A stretch of 15,118 nucleotides of DNA. Origin: a virus. Taxonomy: Duplodnaviria; Heunggongvirae; Uroviricota; Caudoviricetes. Shown one piece after another: positions 1 to 12,560 of this stretch. The notes beneath the pieces are model-generated. The model had not been told where the DNA came from, searched no databases, and saw only the letters and a program-made list of their open reading frames with translations. The translations under genes were made by a program, and so were the position numbers. Position 1 is the stretch's first letter, and every line of letters begins with the position of its first letter. The DNA lies in the IMG/VR virus record IMGVR_UViG_2740892439_000020, positions 1 through 15,118 of that record; one strand, 5' to 3'.

Positions 1-192
1 TCAGGAGCATTTCTGATTAACGCCACCGTTAAGAATCCACCCTTCAACAGCTTCACGAAGGTATGATTTGGGGTGGGTTCTGACTGGCTTCGGAAATCCG
101 TGGCGTTTGGTATAGTTCCAGATTGTCTGACGTGATGAAACACCGAGCTTGTTCATCACTTCTTTCTCAGGAATCAGGCTGGTATCGGTCAT
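1..192 (-). CDS. xis: excisionase-like small DNA-binding protein (Xis/AlpA-type HTH)
   Basis: 63-aa ORF; ATG at 190-192 with GGAGA 6 nt upstream; basic HTH-like sequence; sits at the distal end of the leftward early operon where lambdoid phages carry xis; its stop codon is the first triplet of the window, so int would lie outside. Confidence 0.55.
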   Translation of the reverse strand: MTDTSLIPEKEVMNKLGVSSRQTIWNYTKRHGFPKPVRTHPKSYLREAVEGWILNGGVNQKCS

Positions 193-2065: not shown

Positions 2066-2306
2066 TGGTTGCCCCCTGCTTTTCTGCCTTCAACACCATG
2101 TGCGAACCATCATCCAGCTCCCACGCGATCTCACCACCTTCAGCCATGACCAGTCGCCACACCAATTGAGCAGCCTCATTGGTAACATCACGACCTGGAT
2201 CATTGCCAACGCGCATACGCCCACCTTCAACATCGCGCATTTTTGCCAGCATGATAGTTTTTGATAGCGGTGAAAAACCAAGCTGTAGTCGTGCTGAATT
2301 ACTCAC
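2052..2306 (-). CDS. hypothetical small protein (84 aa)
   Basis: ORF 2052..2333 in track; start moved to GTG 2304-2306, which has a strong AAAGGAGG 6 nt upstream; overlaps the next gene start by 14 nt. Confidence 0.45.
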
Positions 2307-2469
2307 TGGTTGCCTCCTTTGCGCACATCGCATTCAGATATTTGTTTTTATTCACTGATGGAAAAGAATTTCTCTTAAGCAATTCCTCTCTCGATGGCAT
2401 TGGCTTTACGCGTTGGCGAATAATCATTTCTGCCGGAAGAATGCCGGGATTGTATGCAAGTCCTCTCAT
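2299..2469 (-). CDS. hypothetical small protein (56 aa)
   Basis: part of track ORF 2299..2502; ATG 2467-2469 (MRGLAYNP...) has GAGGAA 7 nt upstream; alternative start at 2484-2486 overlaps the upstream gene. Confidence 0.35.
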
Positions 2470-2479
2470 GGTAAATTCC

Positions 2480-2776
2480 TCAGTCATTACTGATAGCGCC
2501 ATAGCGTGAGCGGTAATTACGCAGGCGCGGGTCGATATATTCAGGGAAGTGGGTATATGTGGCTTTGCGGAATGGTCGGATTGATGTTTCGTTTATTCGG
2601 TCTTTTTCCTGTTTTTCTGCGAGTTGTATATCGCGTCGGTACTTCCGTTCTTCTTTTGTTTCTGGTGGCAGAGCAAGAAACGCGTCGAGATTATTCTTGA
2701 TATTTTCCAGCACCTCCGATATGGAATTGCCGGAACAGCGGCGCGGGTCGTCCGCACCATATAGAGGCGCTGGCAT
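2480..2776 (-). CDS. hypothetical phage protein (98 aa)
   Basis: ATG 2774-2776 with AGGAGA 6 nt upstream; starts 15 nt downstream of the exonuclease stop. Confidence 0.5.
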
Positions 2777-2792
2777 GGTTTTCTCCTGTTGA

Positions 2793-3341
2793 TTATTTAG
2801 CTAACTTTTTCCAGATCGCTGAAACGTATTTGGCTTGGTGAATGGCATCATCAAGCGCGTTGTGGCGAGTTCCTTTGAATGGCATATCTCGCTTAGGGTC
2901 GAATCCTATTACCTTCCCAAGTTCGACGATTGTTCTTACGTCGCGGTCATTCCACCACTGCCACGGAACTGGCTGCCCTGTCAGCGAATAACTGTTTCGG
3001 AGAATAACGCAGTCAAATGATGCTCCATTCCCCCAAACCTGAACGAATTTGTGGTTAGCGTTCTTTATGATGAATTCAGATAACCATGAAAGAGCCGTTG
3101 AAAGCTCCTGAGTGTTGCTGGTTAGCGATTTTCTGGCTTCTTCACTCTGTTCCAGCCACCATAAAATCGTTGAAGCGTCAGGACGCGCCCGATATCGCAT
3201 TGATGACTCAAGCGAGATATTTACCGAGAACTCTTCTCCTGTTTCTCCGGTATTCGGGTCAAAGAATACCGCCCCAATAGAAATAACTGGCGCATATGGC
3301 CCGTTGCCCATTGTTTCAAGGTCAACCATTAAGTGATTCAT
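2793..3341 (-). CDS. DEDDh-family (DnaQ-like) 3'-5' exonuclease
   Basis: 182 aa; Exo I motif MVDLET, Exo II WGNGASFDCVIL, Exo III HNALDDAIHQAKY; AAGGA RBS. Confidence 0.75.
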   Translation of the reverse strand: MNHLMVDLETMGNGPYAPVISIGAVFFDPNTGETGEEFSVNISLESSMRYRARPDASTILWWLEQSEEARKSLTSNTQELSTALSWLSEFIIKNANHKFVQVWGNGASFDCVILRNSYSLTGQPVPWQWWNDRDVRTIVELGKVIGFDPKRDMPFKGTRHNALDDAIHQAKYVSAIWKKLAK

Positions 3342-3349
3342 GTAAGTCC

Positions 3350-3856
3350 TTAAATTGCGTGAATAGCGTGACGAGGGAAGGGGAGAGTTACTGGTGCAAA
3401 GGGTATATCGTCGTCAAAATCCATCGGTGGTTCGTTGTGTTGTGCTGGTGATGATTGCTGCTGTGGCTTCTGTGATTGCCTGCTGGCTGCTTGTTGTTTG
3501 CTGTCGCCAATTCCGCCAAGCATTTGCATCACGCCATTAATTCCGACATGAACCTCGGTTGTGTAACGGTCTTGCCCTGACTGGTCTTTCCACTTTCTGG
3601 TTCTCAGCATTCCCTCGAAATAAATCTGATCACCTTTTTTCACATACTGCCCCACGACCTCAGCCAGTTTCCCGGATACAGCAACACGATGCCATTCAGT
3701 CAATTCCTTTTGCTCGCCAGTATTTTTATCTCGCCATTGTTCTGACGTGGCTATTGTCAGGTTAGCGAACGCTGTACCTGATGGTGAGTATCGAACTTCC
3801 GGGTCTTGTCCTACCCGACCAAGGATAATCACCTTATTTACGCCTCTGCTTGCCAT
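3350..3856 (-). CDS. ssb: single-stranded DNA-binding protein (SSB)
   Basis: 168 aa; N-terminal OB-fold region nearly colinear with E. coli SSB ([33 protein letters not shown]), Gly/Gln-rich linker, acidic C-terminal tail DFDDDIPF. Confidence 0.9.
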
Positions 3857-4564
3857 TTATGCCGCCTGTTTTAGTTCGTTAACTCTGATGTTCATTACCT
3901 GAACGCATTTAGCCTGCGCCTCCTCATTGCCAGCCATTAATTGCCAGTCACGCTGATAACGCTCGATGAGTTTTTTCTTGTCAGTTTCTGTTGACGCATA
4001 ATCGCTGAAGTCTTTCAGGATTTGTTCGCAGTCAACCGATGGAGATTTCTGGTTGGTATTTTCTGGTGATGGTTTGTTATCTGATGCTGGTATTGCCCAT
4101 CCCGGCAGCGATGGAGGGAGCCAGTAAAATCCTGTTCCATCCTTCAGTTTTGCCCTGTGCCACCCCTGCTTTTTATCGAGAGATGTTTGTGCGAAACCTT
4201 CCTCAAGGTTATACAGATACCGACCGATTCCCCACTGAACGGCAGCGCGCTTCATTGCACCGGAACGACCACCTTTGACGGCTTCTACCTGCGTGTTTTC
4301 AGCAGCATCCCATTTGGTTACCCATTCGGAATCAATCTTTATTGATATGCCGCATTCAACGCCTCCGTTGTTGGGAATATCGCGGTATTCATTGCGCCAT
4401 CCTGCTTTTCCGCAAACATCGTCCAGGCGTTTCATGATTGCCCGGTTCGTGACATAAGCCAGCACCATAGCCCACACTTTGCCATCGCGTGTTTTACCGC
4501 TTTGCTGTATTCGCCATTCGATATCTTCAGGGCCGAATGGCTCATCGAATTTATTCAAATCCAT
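3857..4564 (-). CDS. single-strand annealing protein (Rad52/Erf-like recombinase)
   Basis: 235 aa; directly abuts ssb (TAA then ATG); N-terminal annealase-like region with RAAVQWGIGRYLYNL motif; GAGGTGA RBS; sub-family assignment uncertain. Confidence 0.65.
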   Translation of the reverse strand: MDLNKFDEPFGPEDIEWRIQQSGKTRDGKVWAMVLAYVTNRAIMKRLDDVCGKAGWRNEYRDIPNNGGVECGISIKIDSEWVTKWDAAENTQVEAVKGGRSGAMKRAAVQWGIGRYLYNLEEGFAQTSLDKKQGWHRAKLKDGTGFYWLPPSLPGWAIPASDNKPSPENTNQKSPSVDCEQILKDFSDYASTETDKKKLIERYQRDWQLMAGNEEAQAKCVQVMNIRVNELKQAA

Positions 4565-4651
4565 AATTCACCTCAGAATGGACATGGCCCAAGGAAATAA
4601 CGCTGATTTAATACTTCAGTCTTTGCCGCATTTAAAAATACGCGAACACCT

Positions 4652-4822
4652 TCACGATCTCCCTTCTGGCGATACATTAACGCCTGCTGCGTGTACATGC
4701 GTCTCTGTAACTTGCTCTCCTTCACTGTGGTTGCGAGTGACATGAATATCTCCTTCGTTACCGATTAATTCTTTCATCTGACGAATGAATTCTTCGTCTG
4801 ACCAGTTATCTGTAAAACTCAT
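4652..4822 (-). CDS. hypothetical small acidic protein in the kil position (56 aa)
   Basis: ATG 4820-4822 overlaps the cIII-like stop as ATGA; part of track ORF 4652..4852. Confidence 0.4.
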   Translation of the reverse strand: MSFTDNWSDEEFIRQMKELIGNEGDIHVTRNHSEGEQVTETHVHAAGVNVSPEGRS

Positions 4823-4989
4823 GGACGGCCTTGTTGTTTCAAAATATCCCAAAGCTTTTCGAGCAAACTTTTCATTCTTGGTTGTTTAAAGTCTGCTCCG
4901 GTTAAAATGTTTTTTCGTGAATGCTGTACCGATAAAATCGGGTTGAAAGGGCGAACCGATGCCGCCCCTGCAATAGCGAACTGTTGCAT
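4819..4989 (-). CDS. cIII: CIII-like protein (FtsH/HflB inhibitor family), 56 aa
   Basis: ATG 4987-4989 with AAGGAG 7 nt upstream; N-terminal MQQFAIAG and C-terminal SLLEKLWDILKQQGRP resemble lambda CIII (MQYAIAG...ESLLER...RLIDILNQPGVP); the track ORF extends further 5' without an RBS. Confidence 0.55.
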   Translation of the reverse strand: MQQFAIAGAASVRPFNPILSVQHSRKNILTGADFKQPRMKSLLEKLWDILKQQGRP

Positions 4990-5228: not shown

Positions 5229-5678
5229 TTACTTAACCAATGATGCTGCATATTCGATAAGATAAAGTTTTGGGGCCAGCCAAATTTTTAACCAAGTCAT
5301 ATTGGTTACTACACCAATAATAAAAATCCCCCACAGAGTCAAAACTCCAACCAATGGCATGATAAGAAGGTTAATATCTCCTTTGCTATCCCAAACCATT
5401 GTCGGCCTGTATTTGGGATTTCCCCTCTCCCATGAGTATCCTTCATCACCGATTTTACCTGTCTCAACTCTTTGGCACTGCTTCTTCATAAACCAGAAAA
5501 CCAGTGGGATTGTTAGAATGGCTATTAATGTTTTAATCAGACTGTCAACCATATTCCATAGCAGCAACTGATGAACAACATCAGGAATCTGTGCTTGGCT
5601 AAATGAAACAGCAGCATCTATTCCATTGCTGGCTTTTTGCAGTAGTTCTACGAGAATCTTGTTTGCTTGTTCTTCCAT
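5229..5678 (-). CDS. predicted inner-membrane protein with two transmembrane helices (149 aa); possible superinfection-exclusion-type protein
   Basis: hydrophobic segments LIKTLIAILTIPLVFWFM and LLIMPLVGVLTLWGIFIIGVV; ATG 5676-5678 with AAGGTGA upstream; sits between N and cIII; function is inference only. Confidence 0.5.
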   Translation of the reverse strand: MEEQANKILVELLQKASNGIDAAVSFSQAQIPDVVHQLLLWNMVDSLIKTLIAILTIPLVFWFMKKQCQRVETGKIGDEGYSWERGNPKYRPTMVWDSKGDINLLIMPLVGVLTLWGIFIIGVVTNMTWLKIWLAPKLYLIEYAASLVK

Positions 5679-5718: not shown

Positions 5719-5746
5719 CAAAAATAAAGGCCACCATCAGGCAGCC
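5719..5746 (-). terminator. hairpin + T-tract element (tL1-type) between N region and membrane protein gene
   Basis: minus-strand 7-bp stem GGCUGCC/GGUGGCC (two G-U), loop UGAU, then CUUUAUUUUUG. Confidence 0.4.
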
Positions 5747-5817
5747 TTGTAGTTCTGTTTACCAAGTTCTCTGGCAATCATTGTCGTCGTTCGTATTGTC
5801 CACACCATTGATTTTTA

Positions 5818-5904
5818 TCAATAGTCGTAGTCATACGGATAGTCCTGGTATTGTTCCATCACATCCTGAGGATGCTCTTCGAACTCATCAAATTCTTCTT
5901 CCAT
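5818..5904 (-). CDS. 28-aa highly acidic mini-protein (MEEEFDEFEEHPQDVMEQYQDYPYDYDY)
   Basis: not in ORF track; ATG 5902-5904 with GAGGTGA 3-5 nt upstream, immediately after the N stop codon. Confidence 0.3.
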   Translation of the reverse strand: MEEEFDEFEEHPQDVMEQYQDYPYDYDY

Positions 5905-5912
5905 ATCTCACC

Positions 5913-6212
5913 TCAAATAAGTGGTTTACTGCCTAATTTCATTTTCTGGCGACCAACACAAGTCACACCCATTTCACTGCGTGGCTTGCGGTAGTAAATA
6001 CGATTCTGTTTACGCTCGATTTCTTCTGCCTTCTTGCAGCGAAGGCTTCCGAGTGATGCTGCTTTGTCTGCTCTGACGCAACCAGAGAGCTTTAGCGCAA
6101 TTTTTCGCGCCAGTGCTTCATTACTGCGTCGCTCGGCAATAAGTTCTGCTCTGCGAGCTTTGTAGCGGCTTTTTGCCGTACCTTTGGATTCTTTCCAGAC
6201 AATGGTTACCAT
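5913..6212 (-). CDS. N: antitermination protein N (phi21-type arginine-rich motif)
   Basis: ATG 6210-6212 with AAAGGAG 6 nt upstream (track ORF starts at 6242 without an RBS); N-terminal ARM GTAKSRYKARRAELIAERR as I recall for phage 21 N; first gene downstream of pL/nutL. Confidence 0.7.
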   Translation of the reverse strand: MVTIVWKESKGTAKSRYKARRAELIAERRSNEALARKIALKLSGCVRADKAASLGSLRCKKAEEIERKQNRIYYRKPRSEMGVTCVGRQKMKLGSKPLI

Positions 6213-6322
6213 GATGGTCTCCTTTAAGTGGCTTTGGCGCATGACGCGTCGAGGTGCTTATCTTCTCGATCGCTGTCTTGCAGCTGCAATTCGCGCCATC
6301 CCCAAAACCACTCAAGTTCTGG

Positions 6323-6404: not shown

Positions 6405-6464
6405 CTTAAATTTAAGACTTCTTAATTTATTGGTCAAGTGCATTTTTGAAGAAAACTTAATTTT
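6405..6464 (-). promoter_or_regulatory. pL promoter with OL operators
   Basis: minus-strand -35 TTGACC (6432-6437), 17-nt spacer, -10 TAAATT (6409-6414); P22-type operator-like 18-mers with TTAAG/CTTAA half-sites at 6410-6427 and 6445-6462; 12-bp perfect palindrome CTTAAATTTAAG at 6405-6416. Confidence 0.5.
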
Positions 6465-6500: not shown

Positions 6501-6528
6501 GGAAATAAAAAAGGGGCGAAAGCCCTTA
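6501..6528 (-). terminator. putative terminator immediately after the repressor gene
   Basis: minus-strand GGGC-UUUC-GCCC hairpin followed by CUUUUUUAUUU, starting at the repressor stop codon. Confidence 0.4.
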
Positions 6529-7176
6529 AGGAAGGTTTGCTAGCTTGGCATCAACGACAACGCCAATGATTTTACAGTTCCCATTGATTTCAATCATTGG
6601 GTATTGTGGATTGAGTGGTTTCAGGAATTTTCTACCGGCATCAATAACTAACTTTTTGAATGTCGCCTCGTTTTCTCCTTCAAGTTTGGCGACTACCAGC
6701 TTTCCATTACGTGGTTCGACTTCTGGGTCGACGAGAATAATCATCCCCTCAGGAATACTCAGTCCTGCCGGGGCAGTCATTGAATCGCCTTTAACGTCGA
6801 GCCAAAAAGAGTCTTCAGAACAATCTACCGTTGTGTCGTACCAGTTATCTATTGCACGCCTATGATATGGCTCTACAGCTTCCATCCAACATCCTGCGCT
6901 TACCCAACTAATTAGAGGATATGAACCTCTTGGATCATGCCTGCTGTGATAGGCAATGTTTGAAAGACTATCCTCTCCTTTCAACAGGTAATCAGGGGAG
7001 CACTGCAAAGCCTTGGCTAAGGCCAATAGGTTTTCGCCATTGGGCTCAGTTTCAGATCGCTCCCATTGGGAAATAGCAACATTAGACACGCCAACCATCT
7101 TGCCAAGGGCAGCCTGCCTAATCTTGAGTTCTTTTCTGCGAGCGCGAATACGCTCACCCATCAGTTGTGTATTCAT
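6526..7176 (-). CDS. c2: prophage repressor, C2/CI type (N-terminal HTH, C-terminal LexA-like S24 self-cleaving domain), P22 C2-like
   Basis: 216 aa; N-terminal domain (MNTQLMGERIRARR..QAALGKMVGVSNVAISQWERSE) matches my recollection of the P22 C2 DNA-binding domain; C-terminal Ser-Lys peptidase region (GDSMTAPAG...KLVVAKL...TFKKL); divergent from cro across an operator region. Confidence 0.85.
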   Translation of the reverse strand: MNTQLMGERIRARRKELKIRQAALGKMVGVSNVAISQWERSETEPNGENLLALAKALQCSPDYLLKGEDSLSNIAYHSRHDPRGSYPLISWVSAGCWMEAVEPYHRRAIDNWYDTTVDCSEDSFWLDVKGDSMTAPAGLSIPEGMIILVDPEVEPRNGKLVVAKLEGENEATFKKLVIDAGRKFLKPLNPQYPMIEINGNCKIIGVVVDAKLANLP

Positions 7177-10847: not shown

Positions 10848-11258
10848 ATGAAGCAAACAATCTTCCTCCGAAGTAAGCAACAACAGCAAGCCGCAATAAA
10901 TGCCATCCTCGCAACACCACTCGATAAAGACAAGCCAGTCACCATCCGCATTACTGACTACAAGCGCAATCTTGACCAGAACGCAAAATTTCACGCGATG
11001 CTGGCGGATATCGCTCGTCAGGTTCAATGGTGCGGCAAATGGTTAAAACCGGAACAGTGGAAGGTTTTGTTGATTAGCGGTCATGCAGTGGCAACAAAAC
11101 AGGAAGCTGATGTTTTGCGCGGCCTTGAAGGCGAATTCGTCAACATTCGCGAAAGCAGCGCGCAGATGAGCGTGAAGCGTATGGCAAGTCTGATCGAGTA
11201 CACAACAGCCTGGGCTATTGGTCAGGGTGTCAGATTTACCGACAGGAGGTACGAATGA
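10848..11258 (+). CDS. ninB: NinB (Orf-family recombination mediator)
   Basis: 136 aa; AAGGAG RBS; similarity to lambda NinB/Orf ([25 protein letters not shown] vs lambda LDQNRKLWACLGDVSRQVEWHGRWL). Confidence 0.8.
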
Positions 11259-11787: not shown

Positions 11788-11956
11788 CCCATCCCAATCC
11801 CTCCAATACCAGAAAGAAAGCGTCGAGCGGGCTTTAACGTGCGCTAACTGCGGTCAGAAGCTGCATGTGCTGGAAGTTCACGTGTGTGAGCACTGCTGCG
11901 CAGAACTGATGAGCGATCCGAATAGCTCAATGTACGAGGAAGAAGACGATGGCTAA
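11780..11956 (+). CDS. ninF: NinF
   Basis: 58-aa ORF not in track; [40 protein letters not shown] (Cys-rich) matches my recollection of lambda NinF; overlaps both neighbours. Confidence 0.75.
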
Positions 11957-12560
11957 ACCAGCGCGAAGACGATGTAAAAACGATGAATGTCGGGAATGGT
12001 TTCACCCTGCATTCGCTAATCAGTGGTGGTGCTCTCCAGAGTGTGGAACCAAGATAGCACTCGAACGACGAAGTAAAGAACACGAAAAAGCGGAAAAAGC
12101 AGCAGAGAAGAAACGACGACGAGAGGAGCAGAAACAGAAAGATAAACTTAAGATTCGAAAACTCGCCTTAAAGCCCCGCAGTTACTGGATTAAACAAGCC
12201 CAACAAGCCGTAAACGCCTTCATCAGAGAAAGAGACCGCGACTTACCATGTATCTCGTGCGGAACGCTCACGTCTGCTCAGTGGGATGCCGGACATTACC
12301 GGACAACTGCTGCGGCACCTCAACTCCGATTTGATGAACGCAATATTCACAAGCAATGCGTGGTGTGCAACCAGCACAAAAGCGGGAATCTCGTTCCGTA
12401 TCGCGTCGAACTGATTAGCCGCATCGGGCAGGAAGCAGTAGACGAAATCGAATCAAACCATAACCGCCATCGCTGGACTGTCGAAGAGTGCAGGGCCATC
12501 AAGGCGGAGTATCAGCAGAAACTCAAAGACCTGCGAAATAGCAGAAGTGAGGCCGCATGA
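11949..12560 (+). CDS. ninG: NinG (Rap-family recombination-associated endonuclease)
   Basis: 203 aa; Cys-rich N-terminus and lysine-rich region as in lambda NinG; gene order. Confidence 0.85.

Follow-up and report, generated by a model that had tools for sequence, protein, structure and literature searches.

The closest described counterparts of the locus presented here are the recombination (Rec) modules of lambdoid phages. With P22, the Abc2 protein renders RecBCD Chi-independent and raises degradation of the 5' strand, feeding the phage annealase, according to the model of Murphy (PMC9836394; PMC5928155). The modules of both P22 and HK620 function without any phage nuclease, as described in a survey by Zheng and colleagues (Genome Research, 2025; PMC12315714) and in PMC5928155, and with HK620 the last six residues of the phage SSB were found to stimulate annealing (PMC5928155). 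The survey explicitly describes DnaQ-like nucleases within lambdoid Rec modules; there, 3'-5' ssDNA exonucleases are said usually to inhibit recombination, and the authors flag the presence of such a nuclease in an annealase pathway as curious. DexA, a related exonuclease of phage T4, takes part in intron homing, which is itself one kind of double-strand-break repair (PMC12153337).

A stretch of 15,118 nucleotides from a virus of the Caudoviricetes (IMG/VR record IMGVR_UViG_2740892439_000020), hereafter the window, was analysed following an original prediction, made from its sequence, of a recombination module pairing an annealase with a 3'-5' exonuclease. The region proves to be an ordinary and previously described Rec module, that of a lambdoid prophage of E. 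coli, and it is of the P22/epsilon34 type. Annotations of such modules in several sequenced phages date back to 2008-2012; the modules are common among E. coli prophages and were catalogued by the 2025 survey. Nor is the arrangement new: the annotations of epsilon34, g341c, mEp235 and mEpX2 already include it, and PMC12315714 discusses it.

Organization of the Rec module

The central claim, that of a phage module combining a DEDDh exonuclease, a single-strand annealing protein (SSAP) and its own SSB, was borne out, with the gene identities assigned by profile matches; the SSAP is of the Rad52 superfamily and the exonuclease is a predicted DEDDh enzyme. Neither of the two outcomes named beforehand as refuting the prediction, loss of the DEDDh residues or an annealase outside the SSAP families, was observed. 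The three ORFs are complete and begin with ATG, their coordinates on the minus strand are exactly those given, and they are as tightly packed and co-oriented as proposed, with 8 nt between the exonuclease and ssb genes and 0 nt between ssb and the SSAP gene. The true extent of the module is larger, comprising also a small ORF and abc2 (Table 1). The small ORF is homologous to Sf6 gp29 and mEp235_033; similarity to P22 Arf was sought and none was found. Over positions 2400-4800, nucleotide identity is 97.2% with mEp235 and mEpX2 and 87.7% with epsilon34, and 113 of 5,426 complete E. coli genomes contain the ssb-exonuclease junction.

Table 1. Features of the Rec module and of related genes in the window.
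Feature	Position	Strand	Remarks
Rec module	~2480-4743	-	Small ORF, Rad52-type annealase, SSB, DexA-like predicted 3'-5' exonuclease, Abc2
Probable xis-like ORF	1-192		End of early-left operon
Abc2 anti-RecBCD protein (98 aa)	2480..2776	-	Predicted functional counterpart of Gam; 16 nt downstream of exonuclease
Predicted DEDDh 3'-5' exonuclease (182 aa)	2793..3341	-	Rv2179c-like/T4 DexA-like; optional single-gene cassette
Phage SSB (168 aa)	3350..3856	-	Bacterial-type OB fold, Gln/Pro-rich linker, internal DFDDDIPF
SSB C-terminal extension (15 codons)	3353..3397	-	After IPF tip, then stop
DFDDDIPF motif (aa 146-153)	3398-3421	-	Sequence
Rad52-family SSAP (235 aa)	3857..4564	-	PF04098, phrog_1097, fold search
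SSAP C-terminal domain (aa ~176-235)	3860-4039	-	Three-helix, P22-Erf type
SSAP N-terminal annealing domain (aa 4-136)	4157-4555	-	Followed by disordered linker
Small ORF (56 aa)	4573..4743	-	8 nt upstream of SSAP, at P22 arf position; phrog_1723 E 4.5e-34
N gene	5913-6242		Early-left operon
Candidate PL promoter	6409..6437	-	Early-left operon (N, cIII, then Rec module); TTGACC-17-TAAATT, pattern match only
NinB/Orf recombination mediator	10848..11258	+	PF05772 E 3.9e-55, phrog_72; nin region, outside module
NinG/Rap junction-specific endonuclease	11949..12560	+	PF05766 E 4.2e-91, phrog_171

The early-left operon is wholly in view, from N to the probable xis-like ORF, and it encodes no 5'-3' exonuclease; the candidate PL is found a short way downstream of the gene for the repressor. 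As had been proposed, homologues of lambda exo, bet and gam are absent from the window by Pfam, PHROG and tblastn searches, which likewise detected no YqaJ/RecE 5'-3' exonuclease, RecT, Abc1 or Arf. The accompanying statement that no Gam-like gene is evident overlooked abc2, which lies just beyond the three ORFs then considered. The encoded protein matches PF11043 (E 3.5e-44) and phrog_656 (E 1e-49), shares 70% identity with P22 Abc2 along its full length, and retains both the PpiB-binding Pro68 and the IRPFRKA motif. NCBIfam offered no model for Abc2, the SSAP or the exonuclease. Beyond the module, NinB/Orf is part of the recombination toolkit of the phage. Chi sites number 0 in the window against 0.41 expected at 15 kb, a count that is hence uninformative.

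The annealase and its C-terminal domain

The domain search suggested with the original prediction places the SSAP in the Rad52 superfamily: its N-terminal domain matches PF04098 (Rad52_Rad22) with an E value of 2.3e-26 and a score of 93 bits (cut-off 20.3), the protein matches phrog_1097 (E 9e-130), and PF04098 was present in 120 of the 120 SSAP homologues listed. When the AF2 model (pLDDT 82.5) was compared with the PDB using Foldseek, the best 16 matches were all to Mgm101 or human RAD52 (probability 0.95-1.0); the two-domain build of the model keeps the TM scores modest. Searching the PDB by sequence returned WW-domain matches only, which were rejected as spurious, and the family placement thus rests on Pfam and the fold search with the AF2 model.

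The C-terminal domain (CTD) is 65% identical to the C-terminus of P22 Erf (E 2.5e-31). Among 88 loci, an Erf-type CTD and an Abc2-like gene were both present in 50 and both absent from 33, the five exceptions consisting of three truncated loci and two in which no Abc2 was detected. The link is not obligatory, however, because HK620 pairs Abc2 with a Sak4 annealase devoid of an Erf-type CTD (PMC5928155).

The exonuclease and its linkage to SSB genes

Assignment of the exonuclease is based on a match to PF16473 (Rv2179c-like; E 2.9e-73; 245.7 bits, cut-off 27) that covers positions 1-177 of the 177 in the model. Alignment with 18 homologues recovered all five residues expected of a DEDDh enzyme, as had been predicted: D7 of the Exo I D-x-E motif is invariant and E9 is present in 17 of the 18, while D110 of Exo II and both H160 and D165 of the Exo III H-x4-D motif are invariant. 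T4 DexA is the closest solved relative, being the best PDB match by sequence (8kel, E 9.5e-14) and ranking first in a Foldseek search with the AF2 model (pLDDT 93.4; TM 0.80), ahead of RNase T, Orn, REXO2, Cap18 and Cas2-DEDDh, in keeping with an RNase-H-like DEDD fold. The equivalent of DexA W152 is W130, and an Asp, D148, adjoins the position of D169.

Positions 2789-3349 of the window are missing from HK75 with exact flanks, amounting to a single-gene indel, and the ssb-abc2 junction of the HK75 type is about 2.5 times as common in E. coli genomes as that of ssb with the exonuclease gene (284 against 113). The exonuclease is, then, dispensable to the module. Where its close relatives do occur, they sit essentially always directly after an SSB gene within Rec modules. 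Thus, among 51 IMG/VR loci encoding an exonuclease at least 70% identical to that of the window, an intact SSB gene lies immediately upstream in 48, involving SSB-1 in 46 and a non-homologous SSB-2 in two. The annealase core at these loci is of the Rad52 type in 37, Erf in four, a Sak4 of the HK620 type in two, and a 288-aa Sak4-like ATPase in five. Homologues of 58-63% identity are found outside Rec modules; some adjoin xis/int together with genes for YfdP, a DndB-like protein and a dNMP phosphatase, and others belong to a P2/186-like early operon that also encodes Dam and a nucleoside deoxyribosyltransferase-like product.

Optional but linked to SSB across four annealase cores, the exonuclease would most likely be a genuine accessory trimmer of 3' ends and no replacement for a 5'-3' exonuclease. 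The original prediction held the pairing of an annealase with a 3'-5' exonuclease to be mechanistically distinct from Red and RecET; read in this way, the exonuclease would be a resection nuclease standing in for lambda Exo or RecE and generating 5' tails for the annealase. Both the lack of a 5'-3' exonuclease gene in the operon and the tight packing and consistent linkage of the exonuclease gene with those of the SSAP and SSB are in keeping with such a role, but the adjacent abc2 provides an established route to 5'-3' resection through RecBCD (PMC9836394), modules of SSAP, SSB and Abc2 exist more often without the exonuclease than with it, and those of P22 and HK620 need no phage nuclease (PMC5928155; PMC12315714). 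With Abc2 present and the exonuclease dispensable, we consider this substitution unsupported and very unlikely.

Greater weight, though still on the unlikely side, is given to the possibility that the gene is an independent cassette (moron) with no role in recombination, whose product excludes superinfecting phages with modified DNA, as does EcD (HREX), or scavenges nucleotides from host DNA, as does T4 DexA. An optional gene bounded as an exact single-gene indel would suit a moron, as would the relationship to DexA with W130 and D148 at or beside the corresponding positions, the protection against T4 afforded by an E. coli DexA homologue (PMC12153337), and the company that distant homologues keep outside Rec modules with genes of nucleotide metabolism and DNA modification. 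Clade-A exonucleases, however, always follow an SSB gene, even where this encodes the non-homologous SSB-2 and the junction differs, no promoter-like site that might serve expression in a lysogen was found on the minus strand within 2300-4600, and PADLOC returned only a weak generic DEDDh match. Identity with the published anti-T4 EcD was itself rejected because the cloning primers for EcD encode different termini (MIDTET... and ...TIPETYD). An action on RNA, whether in removal of RNA primers, of R-loop RNA or of short oligoribonucleotides during phage replication, is judged improbable. PF16473 is named after an exoribonuclease (Rv2179c-like) and RNase T, oligoribonuclease and REXO2 are among the structural neighbours, but RNase T trims the 3' ends of DNA too, the solved protein nearest in sequence and in fold alike is DexA, a DNA exonuclease, and the genomic neighbours handle ssDNA. 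The constant adjacency to SSB genes together with the natural variants with and without the exonuclease make its role in the annealase pathway easy to test.

The SSB and its internal acidic tip

The SSB matches PF00436 (E 1.6e-36; 125 bits, cut-off 26) and TIGR00621 (ssb; 166.9 bits, cut-off 53.95). The alignment with E. coli-type SSB chains (7f2n, 1eqq; E 2e-59) runs end to end over residues 1-153, and residues 1-115, the OB-fold domain, align with E. coli SSB structures. The original description of a full SSB with a canonical DFDDDIPF tail holds for the protein and for the motif, but not for its position at the C-terminus: 15 conserved residues precede the stop codon, and the Phe of the IPF tip consequently has no free carboxylate. 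This extension, of the pattern P[VA]TLPFPRH[AT]IHAI, is identical in epsilon34, HK75 and mEp235 and is found in 404 of 5,426 E. coli genomes. A search of the literature on an extended SSB tail found nothing.

In epsilon34, the extension is 100% identical while the remainder of ssb is 11% diverged, a pattern that might reflect conservation merely as a mosaic junction at the DNA level. This explanation was set aside, as more diverged copies of the extension change mainly synonymously (synonymous/non-synonymous changes of 7/0, 4/0 and 4/1 at loci L067, L058 and L062, respectively), which makes constraint on the peptide the more likely. By burying IPF, a selected extension might "blind" the phage SSB to the host SSB interactome, such that SSB-coated 3' tails would bypass ExoI, RecQ, RecO and PriA and pass instead to the phage annealase, by way of its shuffled Erf-type CTD, and to the DexA-like exonuclease. 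We regard this as a distinctly doubtful proposal; if true, rewiring of the SSB tail, rather than exonuclease polarity, would be the distinctive feature of the module. Pairs of SSAP and SSB are of practical interest for recombineering, and a cognate SSB with a masked host-interaction tip could differ from those tried.

Proposed mechanism

On balance, and by a small measure, we favour a P22-type system that hijacks RecBCD over one of the Red/RecET kind, in which Abc2-modified RecBCD would perform resection and the exonuclease would be accessory. For such a system we infer the following biochemical steps. Leftward transcription from PL during lytic growth would supply Abc2, which would bind host RecC and cause RecBCD to ignore Chi and degrade the 5' strand, leaving 3' ssDNA tails; this step is proposed here because the protein is 70% identical to P22 Abc2, with which it has been established. 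The phage SSB would coat the resulting ssDNA, and the Rad52-fold annealase would pair it with complementary ssDNA, its Erf-type CTD probably serving as an adaptor to the Abc2-RecBCD complex or to an SSB. Resection would not be the task of the DEDDh exonuclease, which would most likely trim 3' ends, whether non-homologous tails or flaps of annealed intermediates or else 3' overhangs that would keep RecBCD from entering.

Comparison with known systems

As with lambda Red and Rac RecET, recombination in this phage would be driven by an SSAP encoded in the early-left operon, and RecBCD would be neutralised. The window differs from those two in lacking YqaJ/RecE, Bet/RecT and Gam, and in that RecBCD would probably undergo modification and not a block. 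The exonuclease shares the DEDDh fold and catalytic residues with T4 DexA (8KEL/8KEN) and E. coli EcD (HREX), but identity with DexA is only about 25% and the extra loops of the latter, including the S87/D90 tetramer interface region, are absent.

With P22, arf-erf-abc1-abc2 occupies the same slot of the PL operon, flanked by kil/cIII on one side and orf56 on the other, and 70% identity of Abc2 and 65% of the Erf CTD link the two modules. In contrast to P22, the annealase core of the window is Rad52_Rad22 instead of Erf, Abc1 and Arf are absent, and the SSB and DEDDh exonuclease are found at the position of abc1. In HK620, a cognate phage SSB likewise adjoins the annealase (Sak4) and Abc2, but both its RecA-like annealase and its DUF669-like SSB are non-homologous to those of the window. 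In the Sak4-SSB-2 modules of Providencia prophages, which are related to that of HK620, the SSB gene is directly followed by this same exonuclease.

HK75 has the SSAP, Abc2 and an SSB with the same extended tail, without the exonuclease. Sf6 has the SSAP and Abc2 in common with the window, and in it the IPF codon of ssb is immediately followed by an inserted HNH endonuclease gene; because of this insertion, the Sf6 SSB ends canonically and a 14-aa tail closes the HNH protein. An origin of the SSB extension as the native end of the HNH endonuclease, fused to ssb by deletion, was rejected because with HNH homologues from elsewhere (e.g., I-KsaII) the alignment to Sf6 gp26 is confined to its residues 1-137.

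By gene content, the module fits the class of anti-RecBCD protein, SSB, nuclease and SAP termed the 'ES18 class' in PMC12315714. The window as a whole is that of a mosaic lambdoid prophage, with only approximately 50% of the 15 kb common to any one phage. Gene order in the module is identical to that of mEp235 and mEpX2 of E. coli and of epsilon34 and g341c of Salmonella, its order and spacing equal those of epsilon34, and from the modules of these four phages nothing substantive differs.

Organization of the recombination module

The window represents a lambdoid early region, from either a phage or a prophage, and its recombination (Rec) genes lie within the early-left operon. The original prediction, made from the sequence alone, had identified three co-oriented ORFs here, encoding an annealase-like protein, an SSB, and a DEDDh exonuclease; each was found exactly where it had been placed, on the minus strand and with gaps of 8 or 0 nt. 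The accompanying remark that no Gam-like gene was evident did not hold: Abc2, the anti-RecBCD protein of P22, is encoded 16 nt downstream of the exonuclease (PF11043, E = 3.5e-44; 70% identity to P22 Abc2, with Pro68 kept), and hence a functional analogue of Gam is present just beyond the region considered. Mediator and resolvase functions are supplied from elsewhere in the window by NinB/Orf and NinG/Rap. A pattern scan identified a PL-like site upstream of the Rec module and no promoter-like site within it; on this basis, the module should be expressed in lytic growth.

This gene arrangement is already known from the literature and database annotation. The 2.4-kb block at 2400-4800 has 97.2% identity to mEp235 and mEpX2, and 87.7% to the Salmonella phages epsilon34 and g341c; all four records hold the same five genes, with the labels Rad52/22 protein, SSB, exonuclease, and Abc2. 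Among 5,426 complete E. coli genomes, 137 contain at least 80% of the block, and in these PGAP names the products "Rad52/Rad22 family DNA repair protein," "ssb," "3'-5' exonuclease," and "phage anti-RecBCD protein." A survey of 325 lambdoid phages defined a class composed of anti-RecBCD, SSB, nuclease, and SAP; DnaQ-like nucleases were stated usually to inhibit recombination, and the epsilon34 DnaQ gene was considered very likely to be a legitimate Rec module member from its tight packing (Zheng, Casjens, Davidson, Amundsen and Smith, Genome Res 2025; PMC12315714).

Several neighboring features were also recorded. The 149-aa ORF between N and cIII belongs to phrog_3054 and has no Pfam match; the slot it holds is typical for a moron or exclusion gene. 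The overlapping pair of small ORFs upstream of the annealase occupies the position of P22 arf, and the 56-aa ORF of the pair (4573-4743) is a member of phrog_1723 (family label "recombinase"), for which no similarity to P22 Arf was found. The 256-aa Ead/Ea22-DUF551 protein gave piecemeal matches to 18 PHROG families, suggesting extensive mosaicism in this early-left gene. Chi (GCTGGTGG) was absent from both strands of the whole window, a count that is not significant at this length (0.41 expected). It has been reported to be scarce in lambdoid phages with an anti-RecBCD gene, with which the zero count is consistent.

Features of the early region (positions in the window)
Feature	Position	Strand	Remark
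Early-left operon		minus	N-like antiterminator, 149-aa ORF, cIII, small ORFs, Rec genes, DUF2737, DUF7446, Ead/Ea22-DUF551 protein, ea8.5-like protein, xis-like ORF
xis-like ORF (probable)	1-192	minus	
256-aa protein	1295-2065	minus	N-terminal region Ead/Ea22-like; C-terminal DUF551 domain
Abc2	2480-2776	minus	98 aa
Insertion relative to HK75	2789-3349		single gene
Exonuclease	2793-3341	minus	182 aa
SSB	3350-3856	minus	168 aa
Last 46 nt of ssb	3350-3395	minus	
DFDDDIPF plus 15-aa extension of SSB	3353-3421	minus	
Annealase	3857-4564	minus	235 aa
C-terminal domain of annealase	3860-4039	minus	aa ~176-235
Overlapping small ORFs	4573-4743, 4652-4852	minus	upstream of annealase
Terminator-like hairpins	5078-5063, 5041-5022		downstream of 149-aa ORF, within cIII ORF
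149-aa ORF	5229-5678	minus	
Terminator-like hairpin	5748-5727		precedes 149-aa ORF
N-like antiterminator	5913-6242	minus	
P22 C2-type repressor	6526-7176		
cro, cII, O, DnaB-like helicase, NinB, NinG, NinI, Q, holin		plus	
NinB/Orf	10848-11258	plus	
NinG/Rap	11949-12560	plus	

The annealase and its C-terminal domain

Membership of the annealase in an SSAP family was borne out by Pfam, homologues, and fold, all of which assign it to the Rad52 family. It matched PF04098 (Rad52_Rad22; E = 2.3e-26), this domain was present in all 120 homologues among the matches listed, and the 16 best structural matches to its model were yeast Mgm101 and human RAD52. Its C-terminal three-helix domain shares 65% identity (E = 2.5e-31) with the C-terminus of P22 Erf (3255-3872 of comparison locus L102), and the same domain is carried elsewhere by Erf-like and 288-aa Sak4-like (RecA-fold) cores (loci L055, L057, L063, and L069). 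Across 88 loci, the domain and an Abc2-like gene were both present in 50 and both absent from 33; the five exceptions comprised three truncated loci and two without detectable Abc2. We infer that the Erf-type domain would have been shuffled among annealase cores as a partner-interaction module, possibly one that contacts Abc2-RecBCD. HK620 provides a counter-example, with Abc2 beside a Sak4 that lacks the Erf-type domain (PMC5928155).

The extended tail of the SSB

The SSB (PF00436, E = 1.6e-36) had been credited with a canonical DFDDDIPF tail. The motif spans residues 146-153, at the point corresponding to the end of E. coli SSB, and 15 residues still follow. In structures of SSB-partner complexes, the carboxylate of the terminal Phe takes part in recognition; on this basis, the internal IPF of the window SSB would represent a non-canonical tip. 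A literature search found no description of this 15-aa tail, the element encoding which was detected in 404 of 5,426 E. coli genomes and at further comparison loci (L002, L003, L004, and L058-L067). The window and epsilon34 agree at every one of the last 46 nt of ssb (100% identity) but have 56 differences over the remaining gene. Changes in the tails of diverged loci (synonymous/non-synonymous) numbered 7/0 at L067, 4/0 at L058 and L059, 4/1 at L062, and 8/5 at L063; being mostly synonymous, they suggest that the tail peptide itself is under constraint. The tail is unnecessary for the presence of the exonuclease, since at four loci (L052, L056, L066, and L068) the SSB upstream of the latter ends canonically at IPF.

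The same 46 nt form the end of the HNH endonuclease gene of Sf6 (gene 26; 2178-2657 of locus L004), which lies directly after the IPF codon of ssb, where Sf6 SSB stops. Elsewhere, homologues of this HNH protein (the homing endonuclease I-KsaII among them) align to its residues 1-137 only; the tail thus belongs to ssb, and the HNH gene is an apparent insertion after the IPF codon. In Sf6-type phages, HNH reads into the former ssb tail, such that SSB acquires a canonical end and a 14-aa tail ends the HNH protein, which looks like invasion of ssb by a homing endonuclease.

The exonuclease as a member of the module

The exonuclease matched PF16473 (E = 2.9e-73), and its DEDDh catalytic set, as originally predicted, was retained on alignment of 18 homologues (57-87% identity): D7, D110, H160, and D165 do not vary, while 17 of the 18 keep E9. 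The closest structural match to its AF2 model (pLDDT 93.4) was T4 DexA (TM 0.80, E = 9e-12), followed by RNase T, oligoribonuclease/REXO2, Cap18, and Cas2-DEDDh; DexA was also the sole match in a sequence search of the PDB.

Compared with HK75, the exonuclease gene is inserted exactly, as a single gene, after the stop codon of ssb and before abc2. This site is taken by an HNH endonuclease gene in Sf6-type phages, and some phages have HNH and exonuclease together. Within complete E. coli genomes, 113 genomes had the ssb-exo junction and 284 the direct ssb-abc2 junction. Relatives were examined in the best 80 IMG/VR loci by similarity, using a recombination-protein panel and PHROG searches; many of these loci are related, so that the counts do not represent independent events. 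Of these 80 loci, 51 encoded an exonuclease with at least 70% identity, and an intact SSB gene lay immediately upstream in 48 (46 of the bacterial type, SSB-1, and two of the non-homologous HK620 type, SSB-2); the other three comprised one locus truncated by the contig end, another that retains an SSB remnant, and a third that lacks SSB. In this sample, the annealase preceding SSB had a Rad52 core in 37 cases, Erf in four, HK620-type Sak4 in two, and the 288-aa Sak4-like ATPase (phrog_1366) in five, and a Providencia prophage has the same order of Sak4, SSB-2, and exonuclease. Because the exonuclease is found behind SSBs of two unrelated types and together with four annealase cores, its recruitment is difficult to attribute to junction homology alone. 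Locus L037 has an 89-aa C-terminal ssb remnant (5723-5992) with exonuclease and Abc2 kept; no annealase was detected at that IMG/VR locus, apparently a decayed module.

Members of a second clade, with 58-63% identity, are encoded outside Rec modules (L005-L008, L012-L014, L018-L019, and L070-L099; L009-L011), in agreement with the "sporadic" DnaQ genes of the survey (PMC12315714). One of its settings is near xis/int with YfdP, DUF2303, DndB-like, ParB-like, and dNMP-phosphatase genes; another is a P2/186-like early operon, where it adjoins a nucleoside deoxyribosyltransferase-like gene and Dam. Such surroundings hint that the clade has a different role, in nucleotide or DNA-modification metabolism.

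Proposed function of the exonuclease

The original prediction was largely correct as observation and half right as interpretation: the exonuclease does belong to the module, and its proposed role as substitute for a 5'-3' exonuclease is disfavored by the presence of Abc2 and by modules without the exonuclease being the commoner form. That the gene is an unrelated cassette, for defense or nucleotide scavenging, is a less favored reading. A DexA homologue from E. coli, EcD, does degrade 5hmC DNA and confers protection against T4 (PMC12153337); however, EcD and the window exonuclease are different proteins, PADLOC returned nothing specific for the latter, and its strict position after ssb favors a connection with recombination. 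Activity as an RNA exonuclease, in line with the family name, is possible but is made less likely by the similarity to DexA and by neighboring genes that handle ssDNA. On balance, the exonuclease is most likely a genuine, though accessory, component of a P22-type module that hijacks RecBCD.

P22 Abc2 binds to RecC, prevents a response to Chi, and enhances degradation of the 5' strand (PMC9836394, PMC5928155); in Murphy's model, it is further proposed to deliver the 3' ssDNA to the phage's annealase (with structural support in PMC9836394; also PMC5928155). The module most likely acts likewise, with Abc2-modified RecBCD providing 3' ssDNA for the annealase. This ssDNA would be coated by the phage SSB, which presumably aids the annealase in the way demonstrated for the non-homologous pair of HK620 (PMC5928155). 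The exonuclease would serve as an accessory 3'-end processor, either trimming non-homologous 3' tails or flaps once strands have annealed, or blunting 3' overhangs for RecBCD entry. DexA, its closest characterized relative, prefers ssDNA and participates in a type of double-strand-break repair, intron homing (PMC12153337). The Rec layout is common to P22 and the window, whereas the annealase core is Rad52 where P22 has Erf, and ssb and exo replace abc1.
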